This document shows, piece after piece, positions 48,088 through 61,976 of a DNA stretch of 64,000 bases. Position numbers and translations under genes: made by a program. The DNA comes from a phage. Position 1 is the stretch's first letter. Each line of letters opens with the position of its first letter. A model generated the notes under the pieces. That model was not told the DNA's origin. It saw only the letters and a program-made list of their open reading frames with translations, and did not search any database. The stretch is taken from the sequence record OZ346187.1; one strand, given 5' to 3'.

Positions 48088-49226
48088 CAGATTGCTCCAA
48101 CATTTCTAAGAACGTTAACAAGTTTTGTCTGGTCATTAAATGTCCGCTTCATATACAAACAGTCAAAAATTATACTCATCCATTGACCTACGGAAATTCT
48201 ACGATCAATACCATTGAAGTCAGTATACTTAACAACACCTTTCGGGAACCACTTCTTGTACTGATCAATAATAGCCACCCACATCTCCTTTGGAGTGCTG
48301 CACTGAGACAGTAGGTAGAATGCTGAGGCATCCCCGAACTTACCCTTACCGATAAGTCCTTGATACGGCTTGATGTTGTCAGCAGAGTCACCACACAGCA
48401 TTTGGTATCCGAAGAACAGCATCCCGTAACCGCCAACCTCTCCATTAGGCTTCATGAAGATGTTCCCCATACCGTTATCGATCAGCATAGGGGTTTCCCT
48501 TACAAAATCTCCCTTATCGTTTCGCATGGGATCGAACACAAGCCCCGGTAGTGTTCTTTGGTCCTTATCAATAGAGATAATAAACTTGTTGAACTTACCT
48601 GTTTTTTGGTAGTGGTTCCAACCTTCAAATTGCTGGATAGCTAACCAGTCGTCAGCCTCGATACCGTTGATCACTTGAGCATTATACTGCTTTTGGAGAT
48701 ACTGTCTTGCATCTCCAAGCAGCAGTGGTCTAAGAGTATTGTTACGGTTGGCTTTATATCTTTCCGGCATGGGAAGATCTAGTCTGAAATTACCTGTGCC
48801 TCCAAGTACCCCCACGCACCGATCTTCCGGAATACCGAGATAATTAAGGACTGCATTAGCTTTACACTTAATTGTGTGCAAGCAGTTCTCTACAGGATCA
48901 GGGGTTTGGATATCCAAGACATCGAAATCTTCTCGTGTCCACGGAATAAACTCCTTGCCAGCCTTTTTACATGCAGCTTCACGGTTGGTATTCTCAGCTT
49001 TTAACCAACCACCAACGGTGTTCTTCTGCCGCCCCCAGAACTCTGTTCGTGTTTTAAACATCTTCTTACGTCCGGAGGCTTTGTGTGTTACCTCAATTGT
49101 CCTTTTTTCACAACTTGCTGCAGCTTGATATGCAACCTGATCGAAGTCATAATAAACTATAGCGTCAGGTTCAAGAAGATCAGCTAGACAATCTATGGAC
49201 TCAATAAGTGGATATTCTCTACTCAA
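48087..49226 (-). CDS. 5'-3' exonuclease / flap endonuclease
   Basis: NGIEADDWLA matches the FEN/5'-nuclease GxEADD motif. Confidence 0.65.
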   Translation of the reverse strand: MSREYPLIESIDCLADLLEPDAIVYYDFDQVAYQAAASCEKRTIEVTHKASGRKKMFKTRTEFWGRQKNTVGGWLKAENTNREAACKKAGKEFIPWTREDFDVLDIQTPDPVENCLHTIKCKANAVLNYLGIPEDRCVGVLGGTGNFRLDLPMPERYKANRNNTLRPLLLGDARQYLQKQYNAQVINGIEADDWLAIQQFEGWNHYQKTGKFNKFIISIDKDQRTLPGLVFDPMRNDKGDFVRETPMLIDNGMGNIFMKPNGEVGGYGMLFFGYQMLCGDSADNIKPYQGLIGKGKFGDASAFYLLSQCSTPKEMWVAIIDQYKKWFPKGVVKYTDFNGIDRRISVGQWMSIIFDCLYMKRTFNDQTKLVNVLRNVGAI

Positions 49227-49527
49227 AGACCCTCCTGTTAGTTATTCTGCAAGATGGTTGGATGCTGTAATGAAATGCATCATCACTCTCTGCAATAAGT
49301 GACTCAACATCCCAATACTTTTCAAAAAGGAACGGATTAGACCCCCAGTGGTGGGTTATTTTCATCAATGAGTCTGGTAGCAGATAGCCACAGATCTTAA
49401 TTACATCACCAGGTTGAATTGTGTTTTCATAGAGGTTGCTTTCCTTCTTCAGAATAATACCTTTATGATTCTCGTTTGCATACAACTGGACAATATCTTT
49501 ATCTTCAACAATAAAAATTTTAAGCAT
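49219..49527 (-). CDS. hypothetical protein
   Basis: ORF-track ORF. Confidence 0.45.
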   Translation of the reverse strand: MLKIFIVEDKDIVQLYANENHKGIILKKESNLYENTIQPGDVIKICGYLLPDSLMKITHHWGSNPFLFEKYWDVESLIAESDDAFHYSIQPSCRITNRRVFE

Positions 49528-49560
49528 GTCTAGTTCTCCTAGTTTATAAATATCTGACTG

Positions 49561-49590
49561 ATAATATCAGATTAATAACACTTTTGTCAA
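49561..49590 (-). promoter_or_regulatory. sigma70-like promoter on minus strand (TTGACA-18-TATTAT) with palindrome CTGATATTATCAG over the -10
   Basis: Reverse complement gives consensus -35; -10 sits inside a 13-bp palindrome. Confidence 0.5.
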
Positions 49591-49883
49591 GACTTTTTAG
49601 TCTTTCTTGGAGAGCTTTTTGTTGATCTTTTCCTTTTGTGGTAGATTCCAAGTGCAGCGTTTTCTTGGGCGCACGTTTTAACAGTTCTCAGAGAAGAACT
49701 TTCAGCTTTAGGCAGGTTTAACTCCCACCAACCGAGCCAGTAAAGTTCTGATTCCGACAGCTGCTCAGATTCAGCCTTCCGATACAATGATTGCATACCT
49801 CTAATGATGTCGTCCAGAGGTGTATCGAATACAAAAGCTGTCTTATCAAATTTCTCTTTTACAGGTTTCTTAGCCATGCTCAC
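49587..49883 (-). CDS. hypothetical basic protein
   Basis: ORF-track ORF; Lys/Arg-rich C-terminus. Confidence 0.45.
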   Translation of the reverse strand: MSMAKKPVKEKFDKTAFVFDTPLDDIIRGMQSLYRKAESEQLSESELYWLGWWELNLPKAESSSLRTVKTCAQENAALGIYHKRKRSTKSSPRKTKKS

Positions 49884-50754
49884 CTCTCACACAATCATCC
49901 ACTGACTTCATAAACTCTTGCACCCAAAGTGCCCCTATTTGAGGAACTATGGCGTTACCGAAGCCTTTGTGGCGAGACAATCCCATTGGGGTGGATAGCC
50001 CATCAACCAACAAGGGAATGCCGGGTTCAGGAAGTTTACGCCATTTTCCGTCTCGGCATAGATACTGTCTTGTATGCTCCCACACCCGTAATACATCCTC
50101 ACCTGCTCCCACAGATTCCCAGGACTTAATGACTTCCTGCCAGTTGCTAAGCGTTGTTGCTTGCGCCTTTCCATCGCTTCCTGAGATCTGCACCCTACCT
50201 GAGTTACCGTAGGGGTTAACCACGTTGCTAACTGCCCCGAAGTAAAGTCGTTCGCGGCGGTGCGGGGCGTTGAGGATTGCAGCATTAAGTATGGAAGCCC
50301 CGAAGCTGTAACCAGCGTTTTCCATTTCATTCTGCATATCGTCGAGCCATCCGGATTCAATCGCTTTTGCAACCTGCTCTCCAAACATGAACTCAGGTTT
50401 AAGCTGTTTAACGAGCCGGAGGTATGTTGGTGCAAGATGTCTTGGGTCAAATTTTCCACGTTGCTTACCTGCTTGAGAGAAAGGTTGGCAGCACGGAGAT
50501 CCTGTGCATACCGACCAAGTTTCTGGAATGCCAGCAAGTTTCAAGGCCAAAGGCCATCCACCTATACCAGCGAAGAAGTGCCACTGTGTGAAACCTCTAA
50601 GATCTTCTACAGTAACCTCTGTAATAGAACGATCATCCACCTCGCCTTGAGGAAGTAGTCCTAAAGATATTAGATTCTTCAACCAAGCAACTGCATCTTT
50701 ATCATTGTCATTGTAGTATACCACACTTAATTCTCCAAATACTGATGTATCCAA
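49870..50754 (-). CDS. dcm: DNA C5-cytosine methyltransferase
   Basis: Motif I HFFAGIGG, motif IV GSPCCQPFSQAG, ENV-like FGEQV, RRER, motif X GNAIVPQ. Confidence 0.8.
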   Translation of the reverse strand: MDTSVFGELSVVYYNDNDKDAVAWLKNLISLGLLPQGEVDDRSITEVTVEDLRGFTQWHFFAGIGGWPLALKLAGIPETWSVCTGSPCCQPFSQAGKQRGKFDPRHLAPTYLRLVKQLKPEFMFGEQVAKAIESGWLDDMQNEMENAGYSFGASILNAAILNAPHRRERLYFGAVSNVVNPYGNSGRVQISGSDGKAQATTLSNWQEVIKSWESVGAGEDVLRVWEHTRQYLCRDGKWRKLPEPGIPLLVDGLSTPMGLSRHKGFGNAIVPQIGALWVQEFMKSVDDCVRGEHG

Positions 50755-51242
50755 GAAAAGTCAGTCTTCCATTCCGGAACCTTGCTAAGCTCCCGCCACT
50801 CTGCAAAGCAGTCTCGATAATAAGCCTCTGCCATGCCCTTGGTGATCTTATTCACCTTAGCCAACTGATTAACTGCCTGAGCATACTTTCCACGGATATT
50901 TGCTAACCCAGGGTGCACCGATGTGTGACAATCCGGGCACAACGCTATCAGTCCGACAAGACGGATCACTCCATCTTCGAAAGTGTAAAGTTCATGACAC
51001 TCCACTGGGTGTTTGCTGCCCTTACCGCCGCACACCTCACAAGTGTAGTTGGCTTCTCTGTAGCACTTCTTACGGATCTTATCCCACTCACTCTTCTTCA
51101 CAGCGTTTCGGAGGTTATTATACCAAGCTGTTTCTGGGATCAGTTGCACAATAAGCCTGCGTTCAGACTTCATTAAACGTCCGTCTTCCACGTGTTCTCC
51201 CTCATTCAAAGAAATGGGTGCGAGGGCAGGAACCTGCCTCAC
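50727..51242 (-). CDS. putative HNH endonuclease (free-standing)
   Basis: CEVCGG...HPVECHEL...CPDCH zinc-finger/HNH-like pattern. Confidence 0.5.
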   Translation of the reverse strand: MRQVPALAPISLNEGEHVEDGRLMKSERRLIVQLIPETAWYNNLRNAVKKSEWDKIRKKCYREANYTCEVCGGKGSKHPVECHELYTFEDGVIRLVGLIALCPDCHTSVHPGLANIRGKYAQAVNQLAKVNKITKGMAEAYYRDCFAEWRELSKVPEWKTDFSWIHQYLEN

Positions 51243-51408
51243 CTTGTTTCACAAGCTCGTAGAGCTCACCTTGGCCTGTCTCATAAAGGCAAATACGTTT
51301 ACCATTGTCCCGATATACATCGACAAGATACGCTGTTTCACCTGCAAACACGACACCACAGGCCAGACATGCTGTCATGAACAAAATTGCCAACAGAAAA
51401 TCTTTCAT
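51202..51408 (-). CDS. putative small lipoprotein
   Basis: Signal peptide with lipobox-like LAILFMTACLACG. Confidence 0.4.
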   Translation of the reverse strand: MKDFLLAILFMTACLACGVVFAGETAYLVDVYRDNGKRICLYETGQGELYELVKQGEAGSCPRTHFFE

Positions 51409-51471
51409 GGTTAAACCCTCCTAAACATTTTATGAGGTAACAATACCACGTCCGTGTGGTTATGTCAATGA

Positions 51472-51942
51472 TCAATCCAGGACAACGCCACCTGCTTTTT
51501 TAAACACATCGATCAACTTCTCGATCTTCTGTTCATGCTGACCATATCCAGCACCAGGTAGCGAAGCCCAGCGGGAACGGCATTTGTGGATAGCTTCGTG
51601 GATACGCCCTTCGTCAATGTCAGCGAGAGCCTTGCACTCACGGATCAGTTGCAACGCAATCTTGTCCTGACTGGCAGGGCCAAAATCTGGTAATCCTAGC
51701 TGCTTCATATAGTGTTTAGCGAACTTCTCCAAAACCTGGTAACGCCCAGCAGCGGAGGAGGTAAGTTTAGCATTTAGCTTAACGTAAACACCGGGATGCT
51801 TGCTGTAATCGCTGAACAGCTTGCCACCGACTATGACATCGTATCCACGATCCTTGGTAGGTTGTCTACCATTATCTGTGCCTTCCGAATATGCGATCAT
51901 ATCCAAGAAAGCTTTTCGTTGAACATTTTTATCAAGTTTCAT
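51472..51942 (-). CDS. endolysin, lambda R-like lytic transglycosylase
   Basis: QRKAFLDMIAYSEGTDNGRQPTKDRGYDVIVGG...WASLPGAGYGQ is near-collinear with lambda R. Confidence 0.85.
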   Translation of the reverse strand: MKLDKNVQRKAFLDMIAYSEGTDNGRQPTKDRGYDVIVGGKLFSDYSKHPGVYVKLNAKLTSSAAGRYQVLEKFAKHYMKQLGLPDFGPASQDKIALQLIRECKALADIDEGRIHEAIHKCRSRWASLPGAGYGQHEQKIEKLIDVFKKAGGVVLD

Positions 51943-52066
51943 TTTTCATACTCTCCAGTTTACTCATAACTAACCCGATCAACAACACTGCATAGTGTGG
52001 TTATGTAGGTGCCAATTGAAAAACCATCATTCAATTGACTACCGTTGCCTACTAAACCTTCCTACA

Positions 52067-53350
52067 TCATTCCAGCACCTCCCAAGTGTCTGGGTTAACA
52101 TTCCGGACGCAGATACCGACAGGGAATTGGTAGTTGTTGTCTTCTGTCCTTGCTTGATATTTGAAGGTGACAAACTTGCCGATCATTTCCTGCATTCTGT
52201 CATAGCTACGCTCCTCGTGCGTACCTTTCATCTTCATTTTAACAACAACACCTTCCTTGTCAACACAGATAAGAACACCTTCATCATTCTTATCTTTCTC
52301 AACGTCAATAACTTTCACCTCTGCGTCGTTGAACTTTTTCCATTTCAATGCTTCAGATGTTCGCTGACCATACTCATATTTACCGCAGAAATTACGCATG
52401 ATAGTACCTTCATATCCTTCGGACATGAATATACCAACAGATTCTTCGCAATGATCAACTGTGTACGCAAGCTCTGCGTCAACAACCTTGATATGATCAA
52501 GCATCAGAGTGGTAACGGTATCCTCTGCATCCATAAGATCCTTGCAGCGTCCAGACTCTGTTTCTGGATCCCACCACACCTTGTCGCTAGGAATATCAAA
52601 AATGTGATACTCCAGATCGTAGCTACAGTATCCACCGTAACGCAAATCATCACGAACAGGCTCAACATCGACAGGAATATCTACCTTGTTGAAGTTTTTG
52701 TATGTTGATAAGCCTGCCTTAATTGCTGCATGACGGCGTTTTTTATCTGCCTCATAGTCTTTATCGATCTCGGCCTGAATCTCTTCCTGTGTGCGCCACC
52801 GTTTAGCAAGAGACACTATTTTCTGCAAAGGAAGACCATGAATGTATAGTTCCCCATCAAGTTGTTTAATCCCAGTGGTAGAATGGAAAGAACGAAGTTG
52901 CTCTAAAAGCTTTCCTTGAATAGGGTAGGACTTATTACCACGGGAAATAAATTTAGGCTCACCATTTTGGAAAACAACAAGCAGACGAAGGCCATCTAAC
53001 TTACGCAAGATCCAGCAAGGTAATTTAAGTGCCTTGCCACGCTTCAGGTAGTCATGCACCAGCATAGGTAAAAGATCAACACCCTGCTCGCAATCTTCCA
53101 TGTTTTCAACATACCCCAGACGGACTTGTTTTTCCCACTTGCTGATAGCCTCAAGCTCGGCCTGTTGCTCAGCTGTAGTCTCGTTGGCACGACCTACGTT
53201 TTTAGGTGTGCATACCGTCTCTTTGTACTGCAATTTACCGTCAAGCTTGCCAAACTCTACGATAACCTTTTCGCCATCAGTGAATACTTTCCACTGTTGG
53301 TAGCTGCCATCTTTGTTCAGTGCGTACAGTGTTGTTTTGATTTGATGCAT
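52067..53350 (-). CDS. ATP-dependent DNA ligase
   Basis: Adenylation motif I RKLDGLR (KxDGxR). Confidence 0.7.
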   Translation of the reverse strand: MHQIKTTLYALNKDGSYQQWKVFTDGEKVIVEFGKLDGKLQYKETVCTPKNVGRANETTAEQQAELEAISKWEKQVRLGYVENMEDCEQGVDLLPMLVHDYLKRGKALKLPCWILRKLDGLRLLVVFQNGEPKFISRGNKSYPIQGKLLEQLRSFHSTTGIKQLDGELYIHGLPLQKIVSLAKRWRTQEEIQAEIDKDYEADKKRRHAAIKAGLSTYKNFNKVDIPVDVEPVRDDLRYGGYCSYDLEYHIFDIPSDKVWWDPETESGRCKDLMDAEDTVTTLMLDHIKVVDAELAYTVDHCEESVGIFMSEGYEGTIMRNFCGKYEYGQRTSEALKWKKFNDAEVKVIDVEKDKNDEGVLICVDKEGVVVKMKMKGTHEERSYDRMQEMIGKFVTFKYQARTEDNNYQFPVGICVRNVNPDTWEVLE

Positions 53351-53619
53351 TACTCGGCCTCTTCCTTAAAAATTTTAAACATCTCTTCTTTACTCATTAC
53401 CAACCAGTCTCCCATAAAGTCAACTAACCAATCTCCCTGGTACAAAACCAAGTTGCCAAACGGCTCAACAAGCTCACACATGCGACGAATATCTCTGGTC
53501 CGAACAGGTGACGATGTAAACACACCTGTATCAATCCACCGTTGCAGATCAGATACTGATGAAGAGCTTCCATCAAACTGGTGTGCTTCTACAGGTTTAG
53601 CAAGATTAAATAACGGCAT
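53350..53619 (-). CDS. hypothetical protein
   Basis: ORF-track ORF. Confidence 0.4.
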   Translation of the reverse strand: MPLFNLAKPVEAHQFDGSSSSVSDLQRWIDTGVFTSSPVRTRDIRRMCELVEPFGNLVLYQGDWLVDFMGDWLVMSKEEMFKIFKEEAE

Positions 53620-53914
53620 TGCAGTCCTCCTTCTGTAGTAGGTCTTTTATAGGATAAACAAGTAAGTGTGGATCGGAATAACGTATAGTCCTATTCTGCC
53701 ATACTATGAACTTTATTACAACCAAATTTACAATATCTTTATCACCATGTAGCCCAACACACACATTTGTCCATATTTTGTGGTTGAAGATCTTGCTATC
53801 GATGTAGATTTTAGTGTCAAACTTATCTTCCATTCTACCTATAAGTTTGATCAGCTCCTTCATCTGGTCGCCAAACACAGCATCTTTTTCAAGATCTCTG
53901 GAATGCTTGTACAT
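53606..53914 (-). CDS. hypothetical protein
   Basis: ORF-track ORF. Confidence 0.4.
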   Translation of the reverse strand: MYKHSRDLEKDAVFGDQMKELIKLIGRMEDKFDTKIYIDSKIFNHKIWTNVCVGLHGDKDIVNLVVIKFIVWQNRTIRYSDPHLLVYPIKDLLQKEDCNAVI

Positions 53915-53976
53915 AACTAACTACCTCACTGCATACTTTCCATAATAAGTAAAGCCGGGTAATCCCGGCTATGTTG

Positions 53977-54690
53977 TTAAATATACTCTGTTACATCCTT
54001 GAAGCTCGAAGGCTTCATAATCTTACCTTTACTGTCAAGGAATATAATAGCTTTATTACCGTTGTAGAACTCCTCTTTAGCAACGAAACCTTCGTAGCGA
54101 CCACCAAAACGACGCTCAAGATCTTCAATCTCTAACTCTATGAGCAATTCAGTAGACATATCTGCACTGGCACCGTGAGAATATCGTAGATGGTTGATCC
54201 GTGCAAACTTGCTGTCATTAGATTTGAGAACCTTCCGCATCATCCCACACACATCGCCGCGAAGCTGGAACAGCAAAGCTGTTGACAACTCCGCTAAGCG
54301 GTAAGCTGACGCTCTTTGCTTGGATGTGTTTTTCGCAGCGATCAGTGTATCATAGAACTCACCGATCTTGAACTTAAGACCTCGTGGATTATCAAACAGG
54401 TTTGACCACTTTTCGTGATTATCATTAACAAGATAAGCGGCATAACTTGTGACAACGTGAAGATCGCAGGCCTCTTTTAGCAGGTGATCTCCACCATCAC
54501 CTTTCTCCAGCTCTTCCAAAACCTCATTGAACTCTTCCTCAATGAAGCTAAGCTGTAATTCGAATGGTGTGTATGATTTTTTCACTTTAGCTGCCACACG
54601 GTTCCAGTTTTCCACCCAGTTGGCAGACCAAAGGTAGTTTTCAGGCTGAGACAGTTTTTCCAGGTTGTCGATCAGTTTAGTATTCAGCAT
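53977..54690 (-). CDS. hypothetical protein, possibly MazG-like NTP pyrophosphohydrolase
   Basis: Acidic helix FIEEEFNEVLEELEKGD...KEACDL resembles the MazG EExxE...D motif; weak. Confidence 0.35.
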   Translation of the reverse strand: MLNTKLIDNLEKLSQPENYLWSANWVENWNRVAAKVKKSYTPFELQLSFIEEEFNEVLEELEKGDGGDHLLKEACDLHVVTSYAAYLVNDNHEKWSNLFDNPRGLKFKIGEFYDTLIAAKNTSKQRASAYRLAELSTALLFQLRGDVCGMMRKVLKSNDSKFARINHLRYSHGASADMSTELLIELEIEDLERRFGGRYEGFVAKEEFYNGNKAIIFLDSKGKIMKPSSFKDVTEYI

Positions 54691-54703
54691 TGAAGGTCTC
54701 CTT

Positions 54704-55465
54704 TTAAAGTTCCATAAAGTTTTCTACAGTTTCAATAAATGCTTTATCAGAGAAAGCGTCAACAGCACCGTTAAACCATACAGGGATCCCGCGATCCTCA
54801 TATTGATAAAGGTCGCTACGTGAAATGCCACTTCCATCTGCACTCTGCGAGTCATACTTGTTTACAATCAGCAGTTTTGTGCCTTTACAAGTAGCAGGAA
54901 ACAATTCCCAGTTAAAATTAATAACTGTGTTAGAACAACCTACTAGGATCACCATATCATTGCTTGTGAGAGATGTCAACAGGTCATACATGTCTGTATA
55001 CTTAGGAGCAACCTCACCGAAGAACACTACATTGGGCTTAACCCAGGTATACTTGCCTGTATCTACCTCCGTGTATCCGATATTTTTAATTACATCATTA
55101 CCTTCAGCATCTTCGTAGGTGATTTCAGGCAAATACCCGTGGACATGTAAAATATCTTCATGTTTTACACCAGCACGCTCCAGCAAATCATCTACATTGG
55201 TGGTAAGGTTGATCACACGACCAGACCAGCGGGAATACCACTCAGCGATCCGAAGATGTGCAAGGTTAGGATCAACACTGCCCAGAGCTACACGACGTGC
55301 ATTGTAAAAGTCATGCACCTTATAGTAATTCTTGGCAAAGGTGTGAATGTTGCACACCTCATCGATGCTGAAATTCTCCCACATTGCAGTGCTACCAGAT
55401 CGGAAAGTGGGAATACCAGATTCAGCGCTCAAACCAGCACCGGAGATAATAATCAGTCGTCGCAT
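54704..55465 (-). CDS. Sir2-family NAD-dependent protein (sirtuin-like)
   Basis: GAGLSAESGIPTFR matches the sirtuin NAD-binding motif; HG and VVFFGE downstream; no CxxC zinc module seen. Confidence 0.7.
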   Translation of the reverse strand: MRRLIIISGAGLSAESGIPTFRSGSTAMWENFSIDEVCNIHTFAKNYYKVHDFYNARRVALGSVDPNLAHLRIAEWYSRWSGRVINLTTNVDDLLERAGVKHEDILHVHGYLPEITYEDAEGNDVIKNIGYTEVDTGKYTWVKPNVVFFGEVAPKYTDMYDLLTSLTSNDMVILVGCSNTVINFNWELFPATCKGTKLLIVNKYDSQSADGSGISRSDLYQYEDRGIPVWFNGAVDAFSDKAFIETVENFMEL

Positions 55466-55473
55466 AAGTGTCC

Positions 55474-55824
55474 TCAGTAGATGTTTTGTTTAATCTCTAT
55501 TCCAAACTTCTTGAATGAGTCAGCAGCAAGCATAAATTTACGAGCTGCCGATGGATTAGAAGTATGCACGAAAATAATCACGTTGTCAATAAGTGGTGGC
55601 TTTCCGAATACAAGTTTCTCCTCTAGCGCAGAGAAGCAGTCGTACCCTTCAAGCACTTCACCTAGATCATTGTCAAAATACCACTCAGATACGCGTCTGT
55701 AGAGCTTTCTCTTATCATTAAGAAAATCCATAAACTCAGAAGAATTCTTTAGCCACAGAGCGTCTGGGAGTCCATAATCTGACGGATCTCTAAAATCATC
55801 AAGCCACACAATCCACTTCTTCAT
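55474..55824 (-). CDS. hypothetical protein
   Basis: ORF-track ORF. Confidence 0.45.
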   Translation of the reverse strand: MKKWIVWLDDFRDPSDYGLPDALWLKNSSEFMDFLNDKRKLYRRVSEWYFDNDLGEVLEGYDCFSALEEKLVFGKPPLIDNVIIFVHTSNPSAARKFMLAADSFKKFGIEIKQNIY

Positions 55825-56756
55825 TGCATATAGTCCTCGTTGTGGAAATAGTAGTCCAGTATCTCACGACGCTCCTGCTCTAATAAGCAATTCCACACAT
55901 CTTCTGTATAGTTGCTACGAATAAATTTTACCATACCGTAAAACTCTTCGTCAACACGTTTAAAGATATCATCATCCCAAATCTTCCAAGCTTTACCCCT
56001 CATTACTGCCTTCTGTGCCAGATAGTATGGAGACTTGATCTTCAGCTGCAGATCATAAGGGTAGTAAGGCTTACGAATCATATACCCTTCACCTCTTGTT
56101 TCTGCAGCTAATTCTTTTGCATAGCTGAACGGAATTTCACGCACAGTGTTAGGACGTTTTGCACCAAGGTATTTGGCAATCCCATCTAAAGCTGCTTCTG
56201 GTAGCATTATTCCAGAATCATTATATCTGCAACCTATCAAATATGCGCCATGGTCTTCTTGAACAATATGCGGATCTGAAGGGTGACAAATTTCAAACAT
56301 GAATGTCATGTTTTCATTGCCCATAACCTTCTTGATAAGATCTAAATTACCACATTGCTCTTGGATGGTTTCCTTTGCAAGGTTACAATATGGAGAATCA
56401 AGAGACCCGGTTGTTGAGAACAATAGGTCACCTTTATGAGATGATACCACACCAAGGAATCCGTTCTTTTTCTCTACCGCAGTCACAAGCTTATTGTCAG
56501 GCAGGTTGGTGGAGTTTTCTCCCAAGTTAAACACTTTTGTGAAGGGCCATGCCACAACATTTCCTTCATTACCTACAACAATGCCTCGGCACTCCAGTAA
56601 ACGAGGGGACAAATGCCATAAATTGTTGTAAAATACTTTTCTAGCATATTTATAGATCTTTAACCCGAGATCTGGGTAATACCTACTGGTTGCAAGACCT
56701 TTGTCAACTAGGTCGTCTGCATTAAAATACTTCATTATATGTTCCTCATTTGTCAT
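55821..56756 (-). CDS. putative RNA ligase (nucleotidyltransferase KxNG)
   Basis: VEKKNGFLG fits the ligase lysine motif K-x-(D/N)-G; a DNA ligase is encoded separately. Confidence 0.5.
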   Translation of the reverse strand: MTNEEHIMKYFNADDLVDKGLATSRYYPDLGLKIYKYARKVFYNNLWHLSPRLLECRGIVVGNEGNVVAWPFTKVFNLGENSTNLPDNKLVTAVEKKNGFLGVVSSHKGDLLFSTTGSLDSPYCNLAKETIQEQCGNLDLIKKVMGNENMTFMFEICHPSDPHIVQEDHGAYLIGCRYNDSGIMLPEAALDGIAKYLGAKRPNTVREIPFSYAKELAAETRGEGYMIRKPYYPYDLQLKIKSPYYLAQKAVMRGKAWKIWDDDIFKRVDEEFYGMVKFIRSNYTEDVWNCLLEQERREILDYYFHNEDYMQ

Positions 56757-56799
56757 TTTGTCAGTCTATCCTGCCACACAAATAACTTAGTGTCAACAC

Positions 56800-56828
56800 T
56801 TGAAATTAACAAAACAGTTAGGTATACT
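56800..56828 (+). promoter_or_regulatory. sigma70-like promoter TTGAAA-17-TATACT
   Basis: -35/-10 hexamers with 17-nt spacer ~29 nt upstream of the kinase ATG. Confidence 0.5.
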
Positions 56829-56856
56829 ACCGTTGAAATTAAAACGGAGGGTCGCT

Positions 56857-57267
56857 ATGTCTAAAATGCTATATATCGTGCGTGGTCTACCAGGGTCTGG
56901 CAAATCAACACTGGCAAATGCGCTATCTTTAGAGGGTCTGTATCCACATTTTGAGAACGACATGTTCTGGTATGACGATGACGGCAATTACAACTGGGAT
57001 GCAAGTAAAGTAACACTCGCAGCAAAATGGTGCAAAGATAACGTAGAAGATATGATGCGTATGGGATACGACCGTATCGTGGTAAGTAATACGTTTACAA
57101 AAGAAAAACATGTGCAGGAATATGTTGACATGGCAATCACTCATGGGTATAGTTATACCGTGATCGTGGTTGAAAACCGCCACGGCAATAAAAGCATTCA
57201 TGATGTTCCAGACAAGGTTGTGGATCGTATGGAACGCCAGCTTAAAAACTGCATTAAACTTAAATGA
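56857..57267 (+). CDS. P-loop polynucleotide kinase-like protein
   Basis: Walker A GLPGSGKST at residues 9-17; ORF-track start 56800 trimmed to ATG 56857 after GGAGGG RBS. Confidence 0.6.
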   Translation: MSKMLYIVRGLPGSGKSTLANALSLEGLYPHFENDMFWYDDDGNYNWDASKVTLAAKWCKDNVEDMMRMGYDRIVVSNTFTKEKHVQEYVDMAITHGYSYTVIVVENRHGNKSIHDVPDKVVDRMERQLKNCIKLK

Positions 57268-57274
57268 GGAATGT

Positions 57275-57829
57275 ATGAAATACTTTGTAACAAGCGACAC
57301 ACACTTTCTCCACCAGCGGGTCATGGAGTTTGATTCATGTCAAAAACACAGATCTCAGTATGATCACAATCTTGACAGTATGAATGCGGGAATCATCACC
57401 AAGTGGAACTCTGTTGTGTCACCTGCAGACACTGTGTTCCACTTGGGAGATATTGCATGCACTAATGATAAGAATATCAACAAATTGCTCCCAGATATTC
57501 TAAATATGTTGAACGGACATATTATTCTTGTTCGTGGCAACCATGACACAAGGACGACTGTCAAAATTATGAAAGAGTTCGGTCATGAGGTTGTAGATTA
57601 TTACGAGCTTCGCCACAACAAGAATTTGATCTGTATGAGCCATTACCAGTTTGCAAAGTGGAACAGAAAGCCTCACGGATCAGTCCAACTGTTCGGTCAT
57701 GCTCACGGAACCACACAACAGTTGTTTGGCAGGCAGCTTGATGTCGGTTGGGATGTGTGGGGGAGACTCTTACCATTAGAAGAGGCATACCGTATTGCAA
57801 TGAGTTTTGATATTGACAGCAGGGAGTAA
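57275..57829 (+). CDS. calcineurin-like metallophosphoesterase
   Basis: VTSDTHF, HLGDI, RGNHD, GHAHG motifs; ORF-track start 57170 trimmed to ATG 57275. Confidence 0.6.
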   Translation: MKYFVTSDTHFLHQRVMEFDSCQKHRSQYDHNLDSMNAGIITKWNSVVSPADTVFHLGDIACTNDKNINKLLPDILNMLNGHIILVRGNHDTRTTVKIMKEFGHEVVDYYELRHNKNLICMSHYQFAKWNRKPHGSVQLFGHAHGTTQQLFGRQLDVGWDVWGRLLPLEEAYRIAMSFDIDSRE

Positions 57830-57876
57830 TCCCTGCTATTTTAAAGAAAATTGCCACACAAGGAGAATCAGGAGAT

Positions 57877-58227
57877 ATGAAAGATGGGGATAAGCTGCTA
57901 TATCTTAAAGTCCCCCTTGAAATACTATCTATGTCAAAAGTTTTGAATGACACAACTGGGGAGGTTGTTGTTCTTGACTTGTATGACAAGATCGTATACT
58001 GCTACCTGCACAACTGGTATAAGCTTGGAGGAAATTCACGCTTCACACCAAGCACAAGGAAAATTGCAGCAGATGTTGGGATAAAGAAAACAAAAGCAGC
58101 AGCGTGCGTTAAAACTTTAGAATGTGCAGGAGTGGTTGAAACATCCACACAAGGGAGAGGTAAAAGATGCACATTTTCCAAAGTTTTGCCACCAGAAGAA
58201 GTTATTCGGATGTCAACAACTGGTTAG
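57877..58227 (+). CDS. putative DNA-binding protein (winged HTH)
   Basis: STRKIAADVGIKKTKAAACVKTLECAGVVE looks like an HTH recognition helix; lies just upstream of tandem palindromic repeats. Confidence 0.45.
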   Translation: MKDGDKLLYLKVPLEILSMSKVLNDTTGEVVVLDLYDKIVYCYLHNWYKLGGNSRFTPSTRKIAADVGIKKTKAAACVKTLECAGVVETSTQGRGKRCTFSKVLPPEEVIRMSTTG

Positions 58228-58303
58228 ACCAGTAAAAACTTAAATATCTGTACTATAAGGATTCGTATGTTTTATGTTCGCCATGGAACGGATACTATTA
58301 ACT

Positions 58304-58363
58304 GTCCGTGATACGGACACATCTGCCCGTAATACGGACACTAACTGTCCGTGATACGGACAC
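58304..58363. repeat. three tandem palindromic sites GTCCGTGATACGGACAC / GCCCGTAATACGGACAC / GTCCGTGATACGGACAC at 21-22 bp spacing
   Basis: Each unit is a 6-bp inverted repeat GTCCGT..ACGGAC with 3-bp spacer; followed by a very AT-rich stretch. Confidence 0.8.
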
Positions 58364-58866
58364 ATAAAGAATATAACTAAAATAACTAAATAATAAAAAA
58401 TAAAAGATCTAGTACTTATGGTACTAAGTACATATACTTAACTTATGTAGAATATACTAGATCCTAAGTACCATGTTTTAAATTTATTACTTACTATGGG
58501 CAGTGTCGGCCCTTCATTGGCACTCGCCTACGAGGGGCGAGATGCCGGGCCTCCTTGGTGCACACAATAACAGAAGTTCATACATGCAGGTCTGTTAACA
58601 TGTGTGGGAGCGAAGCGATAGCGCAGGCCAAAGGCCGAGCACTGATGTGGGCCACCGACGAAAGCTTGCCAGCGCCGTAAGGAGTCGGTTGAGAGTCTCC
58701 CGCACGAGCTTGGATGAAGTTTATGTGTGGAAACTGACAAGAAGGCCCCTAAATCGCTCCACAGCTATATAAACTATACCAGGTAATGCAATCGCACCAG
58801 TTTGATAGAAAAGCTCGTTACAAAGCGATACAGTGAGTTTTTCTATAACTTGAAGAGGAGGCAGCT

Positions 58867-59445
58867 ATGGGTTCACGCAAAGATGACCGTGAAAAGATTG
58901 CAAAACGTTATCAGAATGAAGAACAGATGGAGAAAACTTTCAAGTGGAAGCCAGGTTTCCAGCGTAATCATTCTAACGCTCGTGATCGTAAGCATCCGGA
59001 TAAGTGGTTAACACCGCCAAATGATGGCATGCAGGTTGGGGATGAGAAGGAGCTGTCACCTGGAAAAGATGGCAACTACATTCGCACTAAGGAAGCAGGT
59101 CCAAAGGATGACAGCTATCTTGTAGATAAGGTTCTTGACGGTGTTGATGTAGGTGTTGACACTGTACGAAACCTTTTTCTTGGTTGGTATCGCACAGGGT
59201 TTTTCGACATCAAGGCTATTCGTCGTGTTTGTGATATTAAAAAGTCTGCCTACGATGATGATTCCCTACATCGCACTCTGAGACAATACTCAGAGAGGTA
59301 CGGTCATCCAGTTATCACTCTTGACGATATTAACGAAGTTATGTATCATGTAGAGGTTGTTGCAGGTAGGTTCGGTGATGCATATCTCGGTATTCTTTCT
59401 GCAAAGGATGAGGTAATGTTAAATAAGATTTACTATGAACGCTGA
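58867..59445 (+). CDS. hypothetical protein
   Basis: ORF with GAGGAGG RBS. Confidence 0.5.
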   Translation: MGSRKDDREKIAKRYQNEEQMEKTFKWKPGFQRNHSNARDRKHPDKWLTPPNDGMQVGDEKELSPGKDGNYIRTKEAGPKDDSYLVDKVLDGVDVGVDTVRNLFLGWYRTGFFDIKAIRRVCDIKKSAYDDDSLHRTLRQYSERYGHPVITLDDINEVMYHVEVVAGRFGDAYLGILSAKDEVMLNKIYYER

Positions 59446-59640
59446 GGGGCGATTAATGAACAATCCGGTAGCAAAGAACTGTAATAAATTCAACAAGTCT
59501 GCGATTCACACTGACAGGAAAAAGAGTTGGTTTCCTGACATTGACGAGGAGCTTGAGAGTTACTTTGAAGATTTAGTCACCAATGCAGATGAGGTTGCGA
59601 TTAAAGAATACGCAGACAGGAGGGATAAGGCCGGAATCTG

Positions 59641-59669
59641 TTGACAAAAATAATGTTACCTGATAAGAT
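59641..59669 (+). promoter_or_regulatory. sigma70-like promoter TTGACA-17-TAAGAT
   Basis: Consensus -35, good -10, upstream of ORF 59721. Confidence 0.55.
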
Positions 59670-59720
59670 CTGCAATATGATGTGATACAATTTTAACTTA
59701 CGAGGTCTACAGGTAATGCT

Positions 59721-59963
59721 ATGTTTAAGGTTAAGCTCGTTTTTCGTTCCATGAATGAGGATTATTTAGAAGATGAAGGTGAATTTCGTGCACTGGATGA
59801 TGCAATAGATTTTGCCAACGACTTAGCTTGTATGAATACGGGTTATGGGCTATGCTGTTGGGATGGTGGTGTTCAGATCGGTGATAGCAAGATCTTCTAC
59901 TTCTACCCTGAGCCTGATAACAAACAAATTAAGTATGTTTTATTTATTTGTGCTTTACAATGA
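59721..59963 (+). CDS. hypothetical protein
   Basis: ORF-track ORF downstream of promoter. Confidence 0.45.
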   Translation: MFKVKLVFRSMNEDYLEDEGEFRALDDAIDFANDLACMNTGYGLCCWDGGVQIGDSKIFYFYPEPDNKQIKYVLFICALQ

Positions 59964-60250
59964 GGTTGTTTTCGTGTATCATGATGAATATCCAATTTAA
60001 AGATGAATTTGATGGCTTTATCTCCGGATGCTTTGAAACAGGGTTCGGAGAAGGCTGAGTTCCCCTTAGAGGGCTTGATAGTGCACCACACTTAAAATGG
60101 TAGGGGCAGCCAGCACATGACGATGTGACCCCAGCCAACCTGTAATAAGGTCGAGCCAAAGTGCGGTAATGGGCTCTGGTAACCCACTTGTTGGGTCTTG
60201 CTGGTCCAGGACGCTGGACAAGTCGCAGGGAATACCACCCTGCGGCGAAC

Positions 60251-60296
60251 TTGACAATCAGTATTTGCTATGATAAAATCCACCTATCACGTGATA
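60251..60296 (+). promoter_or_regulatory. sigma70-like promoter TTGACA-17-TAAAAT followed by palindrome TATCACGTGATA (candidate operator)
   Basis: Consensus -35, -10 TAAAAT; perfect 12-bp palindrome at 60285-60296 between -10 and start codon. Confidence 0.55.
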
Positions 60297-60307
60297 ATGG
60301 AGGAAAC

Positions 60308-60646
60308 ATGGCGGATACAACTAAAAAGCGTCGCCGTAGAGGCAGACCTCTGAAAGAGGAGTCCAACGCCATTCAGCTAGAGAAGAACATCCTTGATATG
60401 AAGGAATCTTTTATAGCGATGGTTCCAGAAGCTCACAAAGTTTTAAGAGAGCTGATGTTGGACCCGAAAACCAAACAAAATATTCGTCAAAGCATTGCAG
60501 AGTATGTTCTTGATAAGGCAGACCGAATGCAGGAAGAATATGATGAGATGTTTGGTGAAGAGGAAGAGGTGGTAGTGGAAGAGGCTGAAAAACCAGCACC
60601 TTTTATGCCATTTACTACAGAAATACAGCCTGTTAGCAATAGCTAA
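60308..60646 (+). CDS. hypothetical protein (basic N-terminus, acidic C-terminus)
   Basis: ORF-track 60188-60646 trimmed to ATG 60308 downstream of promoter; GGAGGAAAC RBS. Confidence 0.5.
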   Translation: MADTTKKRRRRGRPLKEESNAIQLEKNILDMKESFIAMVPEAHKVLRELMLDPKTKQNIRQSIAEYVLDKADRMQEEYDEMFGEEEEVVVEEAEKPAPFMPFTTEIQPVSNS

Positions 60647-60655
60647 AATATTTTC

Positions 60656-60684
60656 TTGACAAACTTTGCTTAACAGTGTAATAT
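60656..60684 (+). promoter_or_regulatory. sigma70-like promoter TTGACA-17-TAATAT upstream of the tRNA cluster
   Basis: Consensus -35 and A/T -10 about 60 nt upstream of the first tRNA. Confidence 0.55.
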
Positions 60685-60742
60685 TGTAAACATGGTCTCC
60701 CACCTTTTCTGGCGGCTAAGGTGTAAAAGAAAGCCACCCAGT

Positions 60743-60817
60743 GCCCTGTTAGCTTAGTGGATAAAGCAGCGGCCTTCTAAGCCGTTGACACTGGTTCGAG
60801 TCCAGTACGGGGTGCCA
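60743..60817 (+). tRNA. tRNA-Arg (anticodon TCT), CCA encoded
   Basis: Cloverleaf: acceptor GCCCTGT/ACGGGGT, D-arm GCTT..AAGC, anticodon loop CTTCTAA, T-arm ACTGG-TTCGAGT-CCAGT. Confidence 0.8.
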
Positions 60818-60821
60818 AATT

Positions 60822-60908
60822 GGGGAGTTATCCCGTAGAGGTAGCGGTGTAGACTGTAAATCTATTGTCATTGCGACTCGGGTGGTTCGACTCCACCACT
60901 CCCCACCA
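60822..60908 (+). tRNA. tRNA-Tyr (anticodon GTA), long variable arm, CCA encoded
   Basis: Acceptor GGGGAGT/ACTCCCC, anticodon arm GTAGA-CTGTAAA-TCTAT (GACUGUAAAUC as in E. coli tRNA-Tyr), T-arm GGTGG-TTCGACT-CCACC. Confidence 0.8.
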
Positions 60909-61022
60909 AATTTATATTTTTAGATGCATAAATAATACAGATAATGGCATTGATATTTATCGTCGTTTATACTAGTCACTAACTGCTCGAAAATCAGTGT
61001 CATTATCAGTATAATTTATAAA

Positions 61023-61113
61023 GGAGGGTAGGGAGCAATGGTGCTCAAGCGGTCTTGAAAACCGTCCCGTTGAGGATGACTCGATGATGGTTCGATTCCA
61101 TTACTCTCCGCCA
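61023..61113 (+). tRNA. tRNA-Ser (anticodon TGA), type II, CCA encoded
   Basis: Acceptor GGAGGGT/ACTCTCC, anticodon arm GCGGT-CTTGAAA-ACCGT, long variable arm, T-arm GATGG-TTCGATT-CCATT. Confidence 0.75.
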
Positions 61114-61211
61114 CATTGTTGACCTTGTAATTAAGCGAAAGCCGGAAGCAGAACCGGATTATCAAATGTTACAGTCGTCATCGCCGACTAGCAACATGGT
61201 CAACATACTGA

Positions 61212-61310
61212 GCTAGGTAAGCCCTTTGGCAAGGGCGAGGATTTTTAATCCTGAAAATAGACGAGGTAGTCGTTGAATACATAGGTGGTTCGATTCCATC
61301 ACCTAGCACC
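61212..61310 (+). tRNA. atypical tRNA-like gene (possible tRNA-Lys TTT with ~30-nt extra arm) or tRNA pseudogene
   Basis: Perfect acceptor GCTAGGT/ACCTAGC, D-arm GCCC-TTTGGCAA-GGGC, T-arm GGTGG-TTCGATT-CCATC, but 47 nt between D and T arms; loop TTTTTAA on a 4-bp stem. Confidence 0.4.
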
Positions 61311-61315
61311 TTTTT

Positions 61316-61391: not shown

Positions 61392-61392
61392 A

Positions 61393-61467: not shown

Positions 61468-61478
61468 AATAGTAAATA

Positions 61479-61555: not shown

Positions 61556-61601
61556 CTTTCAGTTATACTTTAAACATATATAAACAAAAGGAACCTTTAA
61601 A

Positions 61602-61959: not shown

Positions 61960-61976
61960 GTTTCTGGAGCCTTAAA

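Follow-up and report, generated by a model that had tools for sequence, protein, structure and literature searches.

A phage sirtuin without zinc-ligand cysteines, encoded beside RNA-repair genes, as a candidate RNA-end-processing enzyme

Within a 64,000-nucleotide stretch of phage DNA (sequence record OZ346187.1; hereafter the window), we find a gene whose product, judged by its conserved residues, is an intact sirtuin that uses NAD+ and descends from class III (CobB/SIRT5-like) enzymes. Gene spacing indicates translational coupling in a unit of four genes, which encode an RNA ligase, a cREC protein, the sirtuin and a MazG-like pyrophosphatase. The window shares ~99.9% identity with Escherichia phage nomine (Vequintavirus), an rV5-like phage of E. 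coli whose annotation lists the gene as a SIR2-family deacetylase; in this region its identity to phage V5 is ~97%. The gene, its neighbourhood and the prediction that it acts on RNA 2'-phosphates are already known, from this annotation and from a paper of 2022. In the BASEL-collection phage CarlMeissner the counterpart gene is bas48_0215. The features of the region are as follows.

52067..53350, minus strand: ATP-dependent DNA ligase (Pfam and PHROG; neighbour conservation)
53953..53970, no strand: G+C-rich hairpin directly 3' of the MazG-like gene, 7-bp stem with 6 GC pairs (sequence)
53977..54690, minus strand: MazG-like nucleotide pyrophosphohydrolase, 237 aa (PHROG 671, 5.7e-22; MazG superfamily in PMC9503650)
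54704..55465, minus strand: Sir2-family (class III-derived) sirtuin without zinc-ligand cysteines, 253 aa (Pfam, PHROG, homologue alignment, AlphaFold model, Foldseek)
55474..55824, minus strand: cREC (cyclic-phosphate-processing receiver-like) domain protein, 116 aa (Pfam PF20274, 9.1e-14; PHROG 1479)
55821..56756, minus strand: Rnl1-family (T4 RnlA-like) RNA ligase, first gene of the minus-strand unit (Pfam PF09511, 1e-14; PHROG 562, 4.1e-65)
56857..57267, plus strand: P-loop (AAA_33) polynucleotide-kinase-like protein, divergent from the ligase (Pfam PF13671, 1.6e-10; PHROG 2071/505)
57275..57829, plus strand: calcineurin-like metallophosphoesterase (Pfam PF12850/PF00149; PHROG 547, 1.9e-52; PDB 1xm7, 5.4e-11)

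The 253-residue product of the minus-strand open reading frame at 54704..55465 has the N-terminus MRRLIIISGAGLSAESGIPTFR and belongs to the Sir2 family far above chance, matching Pfam SIR2 (PF02146; E-value 6.9e-28, 98.2 bits, cut-off 24) over residues 9-181 (model positions 1-178 of 180) and PHROG 2162 'Sir2' (1.5e-108). Residues 9-22 correspond to the stretch that the initial annotation had recognised as a near-perfect sirtuin NAD-binding motif, and that reading was borne out: the residues for NAD binding and catalysis are all kept (G9-A10-G11-x-S13, F21-R22, Y54/R57, N90/D92, H109-G110, F149-G150-E151, G176/S178 and N202). Since this set shows little or no variation across 66-120 homologues, the enzyme is predicted to be active rather than decayed. 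The sole replacement in the set is that of glutamine by threonine (TQNID of CobB reads TTNVD). The Y-x-x-R motif of SIRT5 and CobB binds the acidic acyl group, and the phage segment FYNARR (residues 53-58) is identical in E. coli CobB, with Y54, R57 and R58 invariant. With a pI of 4.9 (clade median 5.1), the protein is acidic.

Zinc ligands are normally required for sirtuin activity. Just three cysteines are present in the phage protein (C38, C177 and C193), none of them within residues 110-144, a segment that contains four in E. coli CobB, and a CxxC was found in 0 of 120 close homologues. The earlier view that no zinc-binding CxxC is evident thus stands, and its suggested counter-case, a canonical CobB whose zinc site had escaped recognition, can be excluded: the 120 homologues lack small-domain cysteines, and the protein falls short of the CobB equivalog cut-offs (see below). 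In sister sequences of the same clade a 4-Cys ribbon still surrounds this 'IGY' motif, so the ligands were lost secondarily. In the AlphaFold model (pLDDT 89.8) the three-stranded small domain is retained, and the small beta-module is therefore predicted to persist even though its zinc ligands are gone. Because the module is kept, loss of the cysteines is by itself no argument for an NADase. Of the proposal that the protein is an NADase or ADP-ribosyltransferase, the second half survives in a specific form, as transfer to an RNA 2'-phosphate (PMC9503650). Skliros et al. 2016 (PMC5107563) noted salt bridges in viral Sir2 copies in place of the bacterial zinc ligands.

By sequence and predicted fold, the closest relatives are the class III deacylases E. 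coli CobB and SIRT5, not the defence-associated Sir2 NADases. E. coli CobB (3.2e-21; TM 0.76/0.84), Sir2Af1 and SIRT5 are the top matches by sequence and fold, and the likeness to CobB/SIRT5 takes in the Rossmann and small-domain fold (TM 0.73-0.84), GAGxS, FR, N/D, the catalytic histidine, FGE and Y-x-x-R. Identity is ~27% overall, being higher over residues 1-112. Unlike CobB and SIRT5, the phage protein lacks the zinc cysteines, carries TTNVD and VI(N/D)F in place of TQNID and VxP, has an extra C-terminal helical segment and an insertion at 203-215, and is encoded in a different gene context. Its acyl-lysine/peptide-binding loop, G-T-S-x-x-V-x-P in canonical enzymes, reads GCSNTVINF, and the proline of VxP is replaced in 119 of 119 close homologues (asparagine in 106, aspartate in 13). 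The NCBIfam CobB/deacylase equivalogs (NF040867, NF001753, NF001755 and others) scored 93-123 bits for the three best models, less than half of the cut-offs of 243-320, and lower still for the rest. Doubt about a plain deacetylase label was thus justified; the gene context, too, points to RNA-end and ADP-ribose processing, not to protein acylation.

Defence-associated Sir2 NADases are not known to carry a canonical zinc ribbon. With these proteins (ThsA, DSR1/2, Sir2-HerA and SPARSA) the phage sirtuin shares the Rossmann core of the Sir2 superfamily, but PADLOC defence-system models gave no match at E<=0.01. A structural comparison with CobB and defence Sir2 proteins had been proposed at the outset; the top 50 Foldseek matches in the PDB are all canonical sirtuins (CobB, Sir2Af1/Af2, Sir2Tm, SIRT5 and SIRT2), with no defence protein among them. 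Neither a SLOG, HerA, pAgo or Macro partner or fusion nor a large sensor accompanies this single-domain protein of a lytic phage. The suggested link to defence effectors consequently found no support, and membership of the defence-type NADases was rejected as a family assignment, being kept only as a low-probability functional alternative. Homology to Tpt1/KptA (Pfam PF01885) was likewise not detected, since the only Pfam match is SIR2 and the structural neighbours are all sirtuins; the protein could at most be a functional analogue of Tpt1/KptA.

The placement of the gene beside RNA-repair genes was correctly recognised in the initial annotation: the neighbours include the Rnl1-family ligase, the cREC protein, the P-loop kinase and the metallophosphoesterase. 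On the minus strand, the cREC start overlaps the ligase stop by 4 nt, while gaps of 8 nt and 13 nt separate cREC from Sir2 and Sir2 from the MazG-like gene, respectively. The ribosome binding site of the Sir2 gene (GAGGA, 7 nt 5' of the ATG) shares nucleotides with the stop codon of cREC, the preceding gene, and together these arrangements indicate one transcription and translation unit. The hairpin at 53953-53970 may mark its end, with a weak T-tail, and was the sole notable item in promoter and terminator consensus scans otherwise at background level. In the GenBank annotation the RNA ligase starts at window position 56735. The MazG-like protein has no Pfam match; in several GenBank records its gene is wrongly labelled 'putative Sir2-like protein', and comparison with Sir2 detected no similarity. 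The kinase and metallophosphoesterase genes run divergently from the four-gene unit, and the kinase counterpart in phage CarlMeissner is annotated as a polynucleotide kinase. Searches of PDB sequences with the ligase, kinase and MazG-like proteins found no matches, and with the metallophosphoesterase only an uncharacterised Aquifex protein. The ATP-dependent DNA ligase adjoins the cassette in rV5-like, Mydo-like and Pakpunavirus phages; it is not necessarily part of the pathway.

This arrangement does not differ materially from neighbourhood type 2 of the RNA-repair sirtuin clade described by Iyer, Burroughs, Anand, de Souza and Aravind (Viruses 14:1977; hereafter Iyer et al. 2022, PMC9503650), with Escherichia phage V5 and Proteus phage Mydo as prototypes. 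The gene and partners are the same (a T4-like RNA ligase, cREC, a nucleotide kinase, a MazG-type pyrophosphatase and sometimes a calcineurin-like phosphoesterase), and all five partners lie less than 3 kb from the sirtuin gene. To that account the present analysis adds the secondary loss of zinc ligands in a clade where four cysteines persist in the cellular and in some of the viral members, the restriction of repair-type neighbours to zinc-less viral members, and the frequent separation of Sir2 from the ligase cassette.

Homologues of the sirtuin occur in 988 phage records. Over a 4-kb region, 118 of 122 related phage records share the gene set, which also persists, with its genes reordered, in Mydo-like and other phages of ~145 kb. 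Among jumbo phages, two unrelated genera, Eneladusvirus and Asteriusvirus, have Sir2 next to Nudix and cREC domains (fused in the former, separate in the latter) and PIN-PhoH, with a 2H/Acb1-like phosphoesterase in Eneladusvirus only; together with the rV5-like clusters, these loci indicate that the combination of Sir2, cREC and a pyrophosphatase keeps recurring although the pyrophosphatases are not homologous. Phyletic coupling between Sir2 and RNA ligase is nevertheless loose, and the two often occur apart. The T5-like phages, the largest group, encode a HAD_SAK_2 'RNA-repair Swiss-army-knife' phosphatase two genes from Sir2 and have no detectable Rnl or cREC nearby. Sir2 is matched by 287 Salmonella phage records, Rnl or cREC by only 14-15, and in Phapecoctavirus a cREC-phosphoesterase-ligase-kinase cassette lies ~30 kb from Sir2. 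In phi92/Phapecoctavirus-like and FelixO1-like contigs the Sir2 neighbours matched nothing beyond DUFs, PHROGs without an assigned function and a single methyltransferase-like PHROG. Conversely, Pakpunavirus, Thalassavirus and Streptomyces phages have the ligase-kinase-phosphoesterase core, and Sir2 was neither annotated nor detected in its vicinity; in the first two genera the core is adjoined by Prs-like, Nampt-like and Macro genes, and no cREC or MazG-like gene was detected. The proteins scanned in Sir2-less ligase cassettes (PaoP5, Chloris and Yaboi) held no Tpt1/KptA in place of Sir2; Macro, Prs-like and Nampt-like proteins were found instead. Elsewhere, cREC accompanies RNA ligases (Rnl1 or RtcB) and tRNA clusters. 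The Sir2/CobB homologues of Vibrio 'schizoT4-like' phages (KVP40, phiSt2 and phiGrn1; PMC5107563) are 40-50% identical over residues 3-200 and differ in their neighbours, which belong to a topoisomerase and thymidylate synthase region.

Sirtuin neighbours were counted within 6-8 kb, deduplicated by contig, at 92 zinc-less viral, 36 zinc-type viral and 80 bacterial loci, the counts not being phylogenetically independent. Near the zinc-less viral sirtuins, cREC occurred 14 times, MazG-like genes 13, HAD_SAK 33, Nudix 5 and 2H 4 times, compared with zero for each at the zinc-type viral and bacterial loci; a Nampt-like gene (HMM) was present at 15 of the 92, and an RNA ligase at 2 of the 36 zinc-type viral loci. 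Neighbours of the RNA-end and ADP-ribose-processing type were thus confined to zinc-less viral sirtuins, which supports a linkage between the two.

Iyer et al. 2022 (PMC9503650, section 3.7.3) described the phage V5 neighbourhood and predicted an NAD-dependent removal of RNA 2'-phosphates like that of Tpt1/KptA, and following them we tentatively favour, at somewhat below an even chance, a sirtuin that serves as a non-homologous analogue of Tpt1/KptA in phage tRNA or RNA break repair. Cleavage by host anticodon-type nucleases leaves a 2',3'-cyclic phosphate on one side of the break and a 5'-OH on the other. In this scheme the 5' end would receive a phosphate from the kinase, the cyclic phosphate would be opened by cREC, the metallophosphoesterase or both, and the Rnl1-type ligase would join the ends. 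The sirtuin would then remove the RNA 2'-phosphate with NAD+, by the same two-step chemistry that sirtuins apply to acyl-lysine, and cREC with the MazG-like pyrophosphatase (Nudix in jumbo phages) would dispose of the cyclic-phosphate ADP-ribose by-product. The mechanism of Tpt1 has two steps (PMC11417386), and its place in a heal-and-seal RNA ligase pathway would be shared as well (PMC9503650; PMC11417386); Tpt1 itself belongs to the ART superfamily (PMC9503650), an unrelated fold, and the phage protein is acidic. For the zinc-free phage clade as a whole, we regard it as a little less probable still that the substrate is nucleic acid and not protein, the enzyme being an NAD+-dependent remover of RNA 2'-phosphates or one that ADP-ribosylates RNA ends, which arose from a CobB-like deacylase and converged on Tpt1, with cREC and the MazG/Nudix pyrophosphatase clearing ADP-ribose cyclic-phosphate.

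In favour of 2'-phosphate removal we count the replacement of the VxP proline in all 119 close homologues, the failure to reach the CobB equivalog cut-offs, the invariant catalytic residues, the tight gene packing, the recurring Sir2-cREC-pyrophosphatase sets and the neighbour census; the invariant Y54-x-x-R57 would suit an anionic phosphate substrate. Against it stand the loose phyletic coupling, with Sir2 found without the ligase and ligase cassettes without Sir2, the fact that the closest structural relatives are true protein deacylases, and a pI unusual for an RNA-binding enzyme. Moreover, T4-type Rnl1 repair is not known to leave a 2'-phosphate, and a metallophosphoesterase could directly yield 2'-OH/3'-OH ends. 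The function of cREC is itself only predicted, and a literature search found no experimental characterisation or biochemical evidence for any phage sirtuin.

Those structural relatives speak instead for an enzyme of the CobB/SIRT5 type that deacylates protein lysines, probably with a preference for acidic acyl groups (such as succinyl or malonyl), and would remodel host or phage proteins during infection; the operon would then reflect co-expression of early auxiliary genes and no shared pathway. We consider this possible but rather unlikely. The matches to CobB, Sir2Af1 and SIRT5, the invariant catalytic set including H109 and the acidic-acyl motif, the retained small domain (half of the peptide cleft) and the ~500 T5-like and other phages having Sir2 with no RNA ligase nearby are all in its favour, and a deacetylase has been proposed before: Skliros et al. 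2016 (PMC5107563) suggested, from modelling and transcript profiles only, that deacetylation activates host acetyl-CoA synthetase (ACS). A deacylase fits less well with scores far under the equivalog cut-offs, the altered VxP and TQNID, the missing zinc ligands, and neighbours that repeatedly process RNA ends or ADP-ribose in the zinc-less viral clade but not around zinc-type viral and bacterial homologues. Nor is there an adjacent Macro or other O-acyl-ADP-ribose-processing gene, no Macro domain being found among the scanned window genes at 52067-57829. The lack of an adjacent Macro, ARG or NADAR eraser also weakens the very unlikely case of a mono-ADP-ribosyltransferase that, like the macrodomain-linked SirTM, modifies a host protein (or nucleic-acid base) or regulates the adjoining repair enzymes. 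Some sirtuins are ADP-ribosyltransferases, and the divergent peptide-binding loop would agree with such a role; the class III acidic-acyl pocket residues are conserved, however, and the context points to no protein target. Sirtuins with that activity are reviewed in PMC9503650.

Alternatively, Sir2, cREC and the pyrophosphatase (MazG or Nudix) could handle NAD+ or ADP-ribose molecules and not RNA, by consuming NAD+, degrading or converting ADP-ribose immune signals, or rebuilding NAD+ through reversed nicotinamide exchange, and so counter NAD-centred host defences. This reading, the nearest to the idea in the initial annotation, seems improbable to us. It draws on the Nampt homologue and the 2H protein of the Eneladusvirus cluster, the latter matching the anti-CBASS Acb1 family, on the Nampt-like genes counted in the census, on the Prs-like, Nampt-like and Macro genes that adjoin the Pakpunavirus and Thalassavirus cassettes (the first two being gene types that resemble the published NARP1 pair), and on the many phages having Sir2 without any RNA ligase. 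Set against these are the lack of similarity to any defence-system NADase model in PADLOC, the harm that a free-running NADase would do to the phage's own NAD-dependent needs, and an operon that begins with an RNA ligase, cREC elsewhere tracking Rnl1/RtcB ligases and tRNA clusters. No sirtuin is known to degrade cyclic ADP-ribose signals. The phage nomine annotation, over window positions 1-48,000 and 48,000-62,600, contains no NAD-salvage genes.

Were the protein a deacylase after all, we would have a clear example of host protein acylation being rewritten by a virus. As an RNA-directed sirtuin was published as a prediction in 2022, only its demonstration would be new. If the predicted 2'-phosphate removal is real, sirtuin chemistry extends from acyl-lysine to RNA phosphate, the enzyme would be the first sirtuin directed at RNA, and 2'-phosphate removal would have two unrelated solutions. 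Phages would then hold a complete RNA repair pathway of the yeast/plant style, which leaves a 2'-phosphate, assembled from non-homologous parts and presumably reversing tRNA cleavage by host anticodon nucleases. This would explain why a sirtuin is encoded by roughly a thousand of the phages sequenced so far, among them T5-like, rV5-like and Klebsiella phages of relevance to therapy.

The sirtuin gene sits in a tightly packed minus-strand operon. The start codon of its 253-residue product (N-terminus MRRLIIISGAGLSAESGIPTFR) lies 7 nt downstream of the ribosome-binding site GAGGA, which overlaps the TGA stop codon of the preceding gene, and the gap to the gene for a cREC (cyclic-phosphate-processing receiver-like) domain is 8 nt. 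The neighbourhood comprises the following features:

52067-53350, ATP-dependent DNA ligase, ~1.3 kb beyond the sirtuin gene
53953-53970, G+C-rich hairpin after the MazG-like gene
53977-54690, minus strand, MazG-like pyrophosphohydrolase, 13-nt gap after the sirtuin gene
54704-55465, minus strand, Sir2 sirtuin
55474-55824, minus strand, cREC domain protein, 4-nt overlap with the ligase
55821-56756, minus strand, Rnl1-family RNA ligase
56857-57267, AAA_33 polynucleotide-kinase-like gene, divergent from the minus-strand unit
57275-57829, calcineurin-like phosphoesterase, divergent from the minus-strand unit
60743-61555, plus strand, tRNA cluster with seven members (Arg-TCT, Tyr, Ser, Thr, Met, Pro), separated from the RNA-repair genes by ~3 kb

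The initial annotation had proposed a sirtuin here, and profile searches confirmed it (Pfam SIR2 PF02146, 6.9e-28, 98 bits, cut-off 24; PHROG 2162 'Sir2 (NAD-dependent deacetylase)', 1.5e-108); judged by these sequence matches, the observation is genuine and lies well outside what chance would give. The surrounding 4 kb share 99.9% identity with Escherichia phage nomine (Vequintavirus) and 96.8% with phage V5, with at least 80% of the region covered in 118 of 122 related records. The gene is annotated as 'NAD-dependent protein SIR2 family deacetylase' in nomine (nomine_200) and as 'sirtuin domain NAD-dependent deacetylase' in BASEL phage CarlMeissner (bas48_0215), and tblastn detected homologues in 988 phage records (rV5-like, T5-like, Mydovirus, Phapecoctavirus/phi92-like, FelixO1-like, KVP40-like Vibrio and several jumbo phages). 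The family is therefore well known at annotation level. At the examined genes, about 20 'Campylobacter phage' records (MG065635-MG065689) match E. coli Vequintavirus or T5-like phages with 86-100% identity; the host assigned to them looks wrong.

Several other features of the window were recorded. The MazG-like gene is labelled 'putative Sir2-like protein' in the nomine (nomine_199), APCEc02, SophiaRose and LL12 records; BLASTP shows its product to be dissimilar to Sir2 (E 0.21), the PHROG match is to nucleotide pyrophosphohydrolase (PHROG 671), and the label seems to have spread from an off-by-one mistake in annotation. Within the tRNA cluster, an odd 99-nt tRNA-like element (61212-61310) was assigned a 4-base anticodon by ARAGORN, only 35.5 bits by Rfam and the label 'tRNA-OTHER' in GenBank. 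Directly downstream of a putative transcriptional-regulator gene (57877-58227), a 24-nt unit containing the palindrome TGTCCGTGATACGGACA occurs in three tandem copies ~21-22 nt apart (58299-58365, plus strand), in a ~640-nt stretch (58228-58866) without an annotated gene in nomine, where the only label is 'repeat_region'; the copies could be operator sites or stem-loops. A full-length match to the Rfam group I catalytic intron RF00028 (7452-7687, plus strand; 64.7 bits, gathering score 50) is surrounded by small hypothetical genes; coordinate mapping puts it between nomine_102 and nomine_103, and nomine carries no annotated intron at that position. On the minus strand, as annotated in nomine (nomine_167-172, mapping to ~33,700-37,900), the anaerobic ribonucleotide reductase gene nrdD seems to be broken into several parts separated by a gene for an HNH homing endonuclease. 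Also on the minus strand, a 294-aa ORF (49870-50754), whose FAGIGGW motif resembles, by eye, a cytosine-C5 DNA methyltransferase, overlaps by 28 nt a 171-aa Cys/His-motif ORF that is 'putative HNH endonuclease 1' in nomine (region 49870-51242).

The absence of a zinc-binding CxxC module, also claimed initially, was borne out. The sirtuin has three cysteines (38, 177 and 193) and none in residues 110-144, whereas the corresponding segment of E. coli CobB has four, and the motif is missing from 120/120 close homologues. The AlphaFold2 model (mean pLDDT 89.8, pTM 0.88; 66-sequence alignment) is confident and keeps the three-stranded sheet of the small domain (residues 110-118, 124-128 and 142-146); as modelled, the module itself is not gone despite the cysteine loss. 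Salt bridges have been described in viral Sir2/CobB where bacterial proteins carry zinc ligands (Skliros et al. 2016, PMC5107563). When relatives were sought in 1.84 billion cluster representatives and the best matches aligned, 83 carried at least four cysteines in this segment (zinc-type) and 46 at most one (zinc-less). Both types share the 'IGY' core and key residues, which on sequence grounds indicates that the ligands were lost secondarily within one clade.

The active site is otherwise intact. G9-A10-G11-x-S13, F21-R22, N90, D92, the catalytic H109-G110, F149-G150-E151, G176, S178 and N202 are invariant or nearly so across 66-120 homologues, and the class III Y-x-x-R motif (FYNARR, identical in CobB) is invariant. 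Derived features of the close phage group include TTNVD in place of TQNID (threonine at this Q/T position in 34/46 zinc-less representatives, glutamine in 70/83 zinc-type ones) and Asn/Asp in place of the conserved proline of the G-T-S-x-x-V-x-P peptide-binding loop (119/119 close homologues). The protein is acidic (pI 4.9; clade median 5.1).

Genes near close relatives of the sirtuin were typed with iterated HMMs and Pfam in 59 viral contigs. In ~14 (rV5-like, Mydo-like and related ~145-kb phages), ligase, cREC, kinase, phosphoesterase, MazG and DNA ligase genes lie near Sir2 in differing order. In ~32 T5-like contigs, Sir2 is preceded by PhoH and NrdD and followed, two genes on, by a HAD_SAK_2 'Swiss-army-knife RNA repair' phosphatase (PF18143, 4e-20), with no Rnl or cREC gene nearby; neighbours in phi92-like and FelixO1-like contigs were uninformative. 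Among jumbo phages, Eneladusvirus encodes Nampt, two genes on a 2H/Acb1-like protein, one small gene, Sir2, a Nudix-cREC fusion, a small protein without a Pfam match and PIN-PhoH, and Asteriusvirus encodes Sir2, Nudix, cREC, a small unannotated gene and PIN-PhoH. The trio of Sir2, cREC and a pyrophosphatase, either MazG or the unrelated Nudix, thus recurs in distant phages. As a control, a profile of zinc-type relatives was used to fetch another 79 viral loci and 80 bacterial ones, the latter holding chromosomal sirtuins from Helicobacter, Sulfurospirillum, Rhodoblastus and others.

Census of genes within 6-8 kb of sirtuin genes, duplicate contigs removed (zinc-less viral; zinc-type viral; bacterial). 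With ~30 entries coming from T5-like phages alone, the counts lack phylogenetic independence, and the zinc-less and zinc-type sets were retrieved with motif patterns differing at the Q/T position.
cREC: 14/92; 0/36; 0/80
Rnl1-type ligase: 11/92; 2/36; 0/80
Kinase: 12/92; 1/36; 0/80
Metallophosphoesterase: 14/92; 0/36; 0/80
MazG-like: 13/92; 0/36; 0/80
HAD_SAK: 33/92; 0/36; 0/80
PhoH-type: 39/92; 0/36; 0/80
Nudix: 5/92; 0/36; 0/80
2H: 4/92; 0/36; 0/80
Nampt: 15/92; 0/36; 1/80

Despite both caveats, zinc-ligand loss is linked to RNA-end- and ADP-ribose-processing neighbours in at least five lineages.

Sir2 is nonetheless not an obligate partner of the ligase, since the two overlap only partially, some cassettes lack Sir2 and others are unlinked to it. 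By tblastn, 988 phage records matched Sir2, 356 cREC and 818 the ligase; among Salmonella phages, 287 matched Sir2 versus only 14-15 matching Rnl or cREC. The cREC-phosphoesterase-ligase-kinase cassette of Phapecoctavirus Mt1B1_P17 lies by tRNA genes ~30 kb from Sir2, and Proteus phage Privateer has a cREC-like gene with RtcB ligase and tRNAs and no Sir2 nearby. No Sir2 was annotated or detected near the ligase-kinase(-phosphoesterase) core of Pakpunavirus (PaoP5), Thalassavirus (Chloris) or Streptomyces phages. In Pseudomonas phage PaoP5 and Vibrio phage Chloris this core adjoins Prs-like, Nampt-like and Macro-domain genes (annotated as ribose-phosphate pyrophosphokinase, nicotinamide phosphoribosyltransferase and Macro-domain protein), the first two of which presumably resemble the published NAD+ reconstitution pathway NARP1. 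This layout points to a common accessory region for genes of RNA repair and NAD restoration.

What the sirtuin acts on was weighed against these data. The initial suggestion that it is probably not a plain deacetylase holds; inferring a defence-like NADase from the loss of zinc ligands is not justified. Foldseek placed CobB first in the PDB (TM 0.73-0.76 by query, 0.78-0.84 by target), followed by Sir2Af1, SIRT5, SIRT2 and Sir2Tm, with no defence-associated Sir2 among the top 50 matches, and PADLOC defence-system models gave no match. A CobB/SIRT5-type protein deacylase would fit the closest homology by sequence, which is to class III sirtuins (CobB, 1s5p, 3.2e-21; SIRT5; Sir2Af1), and the occurrence of Sir2 without ligases; Skliros et al. 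2016 (PMC5107563) used modelling and transcript profiles to propose that host acetyl-CoA synthetase is deacetylated. The protein nevertheless diverges from CobB at the peptide-binding loop, and its three best NCBIfam CobB/deacylase scores (93-123 bits) fall below the cut-offs (243-320); we rank this role second, at a somewhat lower probability than the Tpt1-like one below. Nampt and Acb1-like neighbours would suit a small-molecule NAD+/ADP-ribose counter-defence module, which seems unlikely, and a protein ADP-ribosyltransferase is least probable of all.

We tentatively rank first a role like that of Tpt1/KptA, the RNA 2'-phosphotransferase. Removal of RNA 2'-phosphates was proposed for this distinct viral sirtuin clade (Iyer et al. 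2022, PMC9503650), and a full-text literature search turned up no phage sirtuin that had been tested biochemically or genetically. Earlier publications already cover the sirtuin gene, its absent zinc ligands and the RNA-repair neighbourhood of phage V5. Two points of chemistry speak against the Tpt1-like role: no 2'-phosphate remains after T4-type Rnl1 repair, and diol ends can be produced directly by a metallophosphoesterase. Under the Tpt1-like reading, the kinase would phosphorylate the 5'-OH end, cREC would open the 2',3'-cyclic phosphate and the ligase would seal the break; the sirtuin would then move ADP-ribose from NAD+ onto the 2'-phosphate, and cREC and the MazG-like enzyme would dismantle the ADP-ribose cyclic-phosphate by-product. 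By analogy, each step of such chemistry would have its counterpart in the sirtuin deacylation cycle, and an anionic substrate would be well matched to the invariant Tyr/Arg pair.
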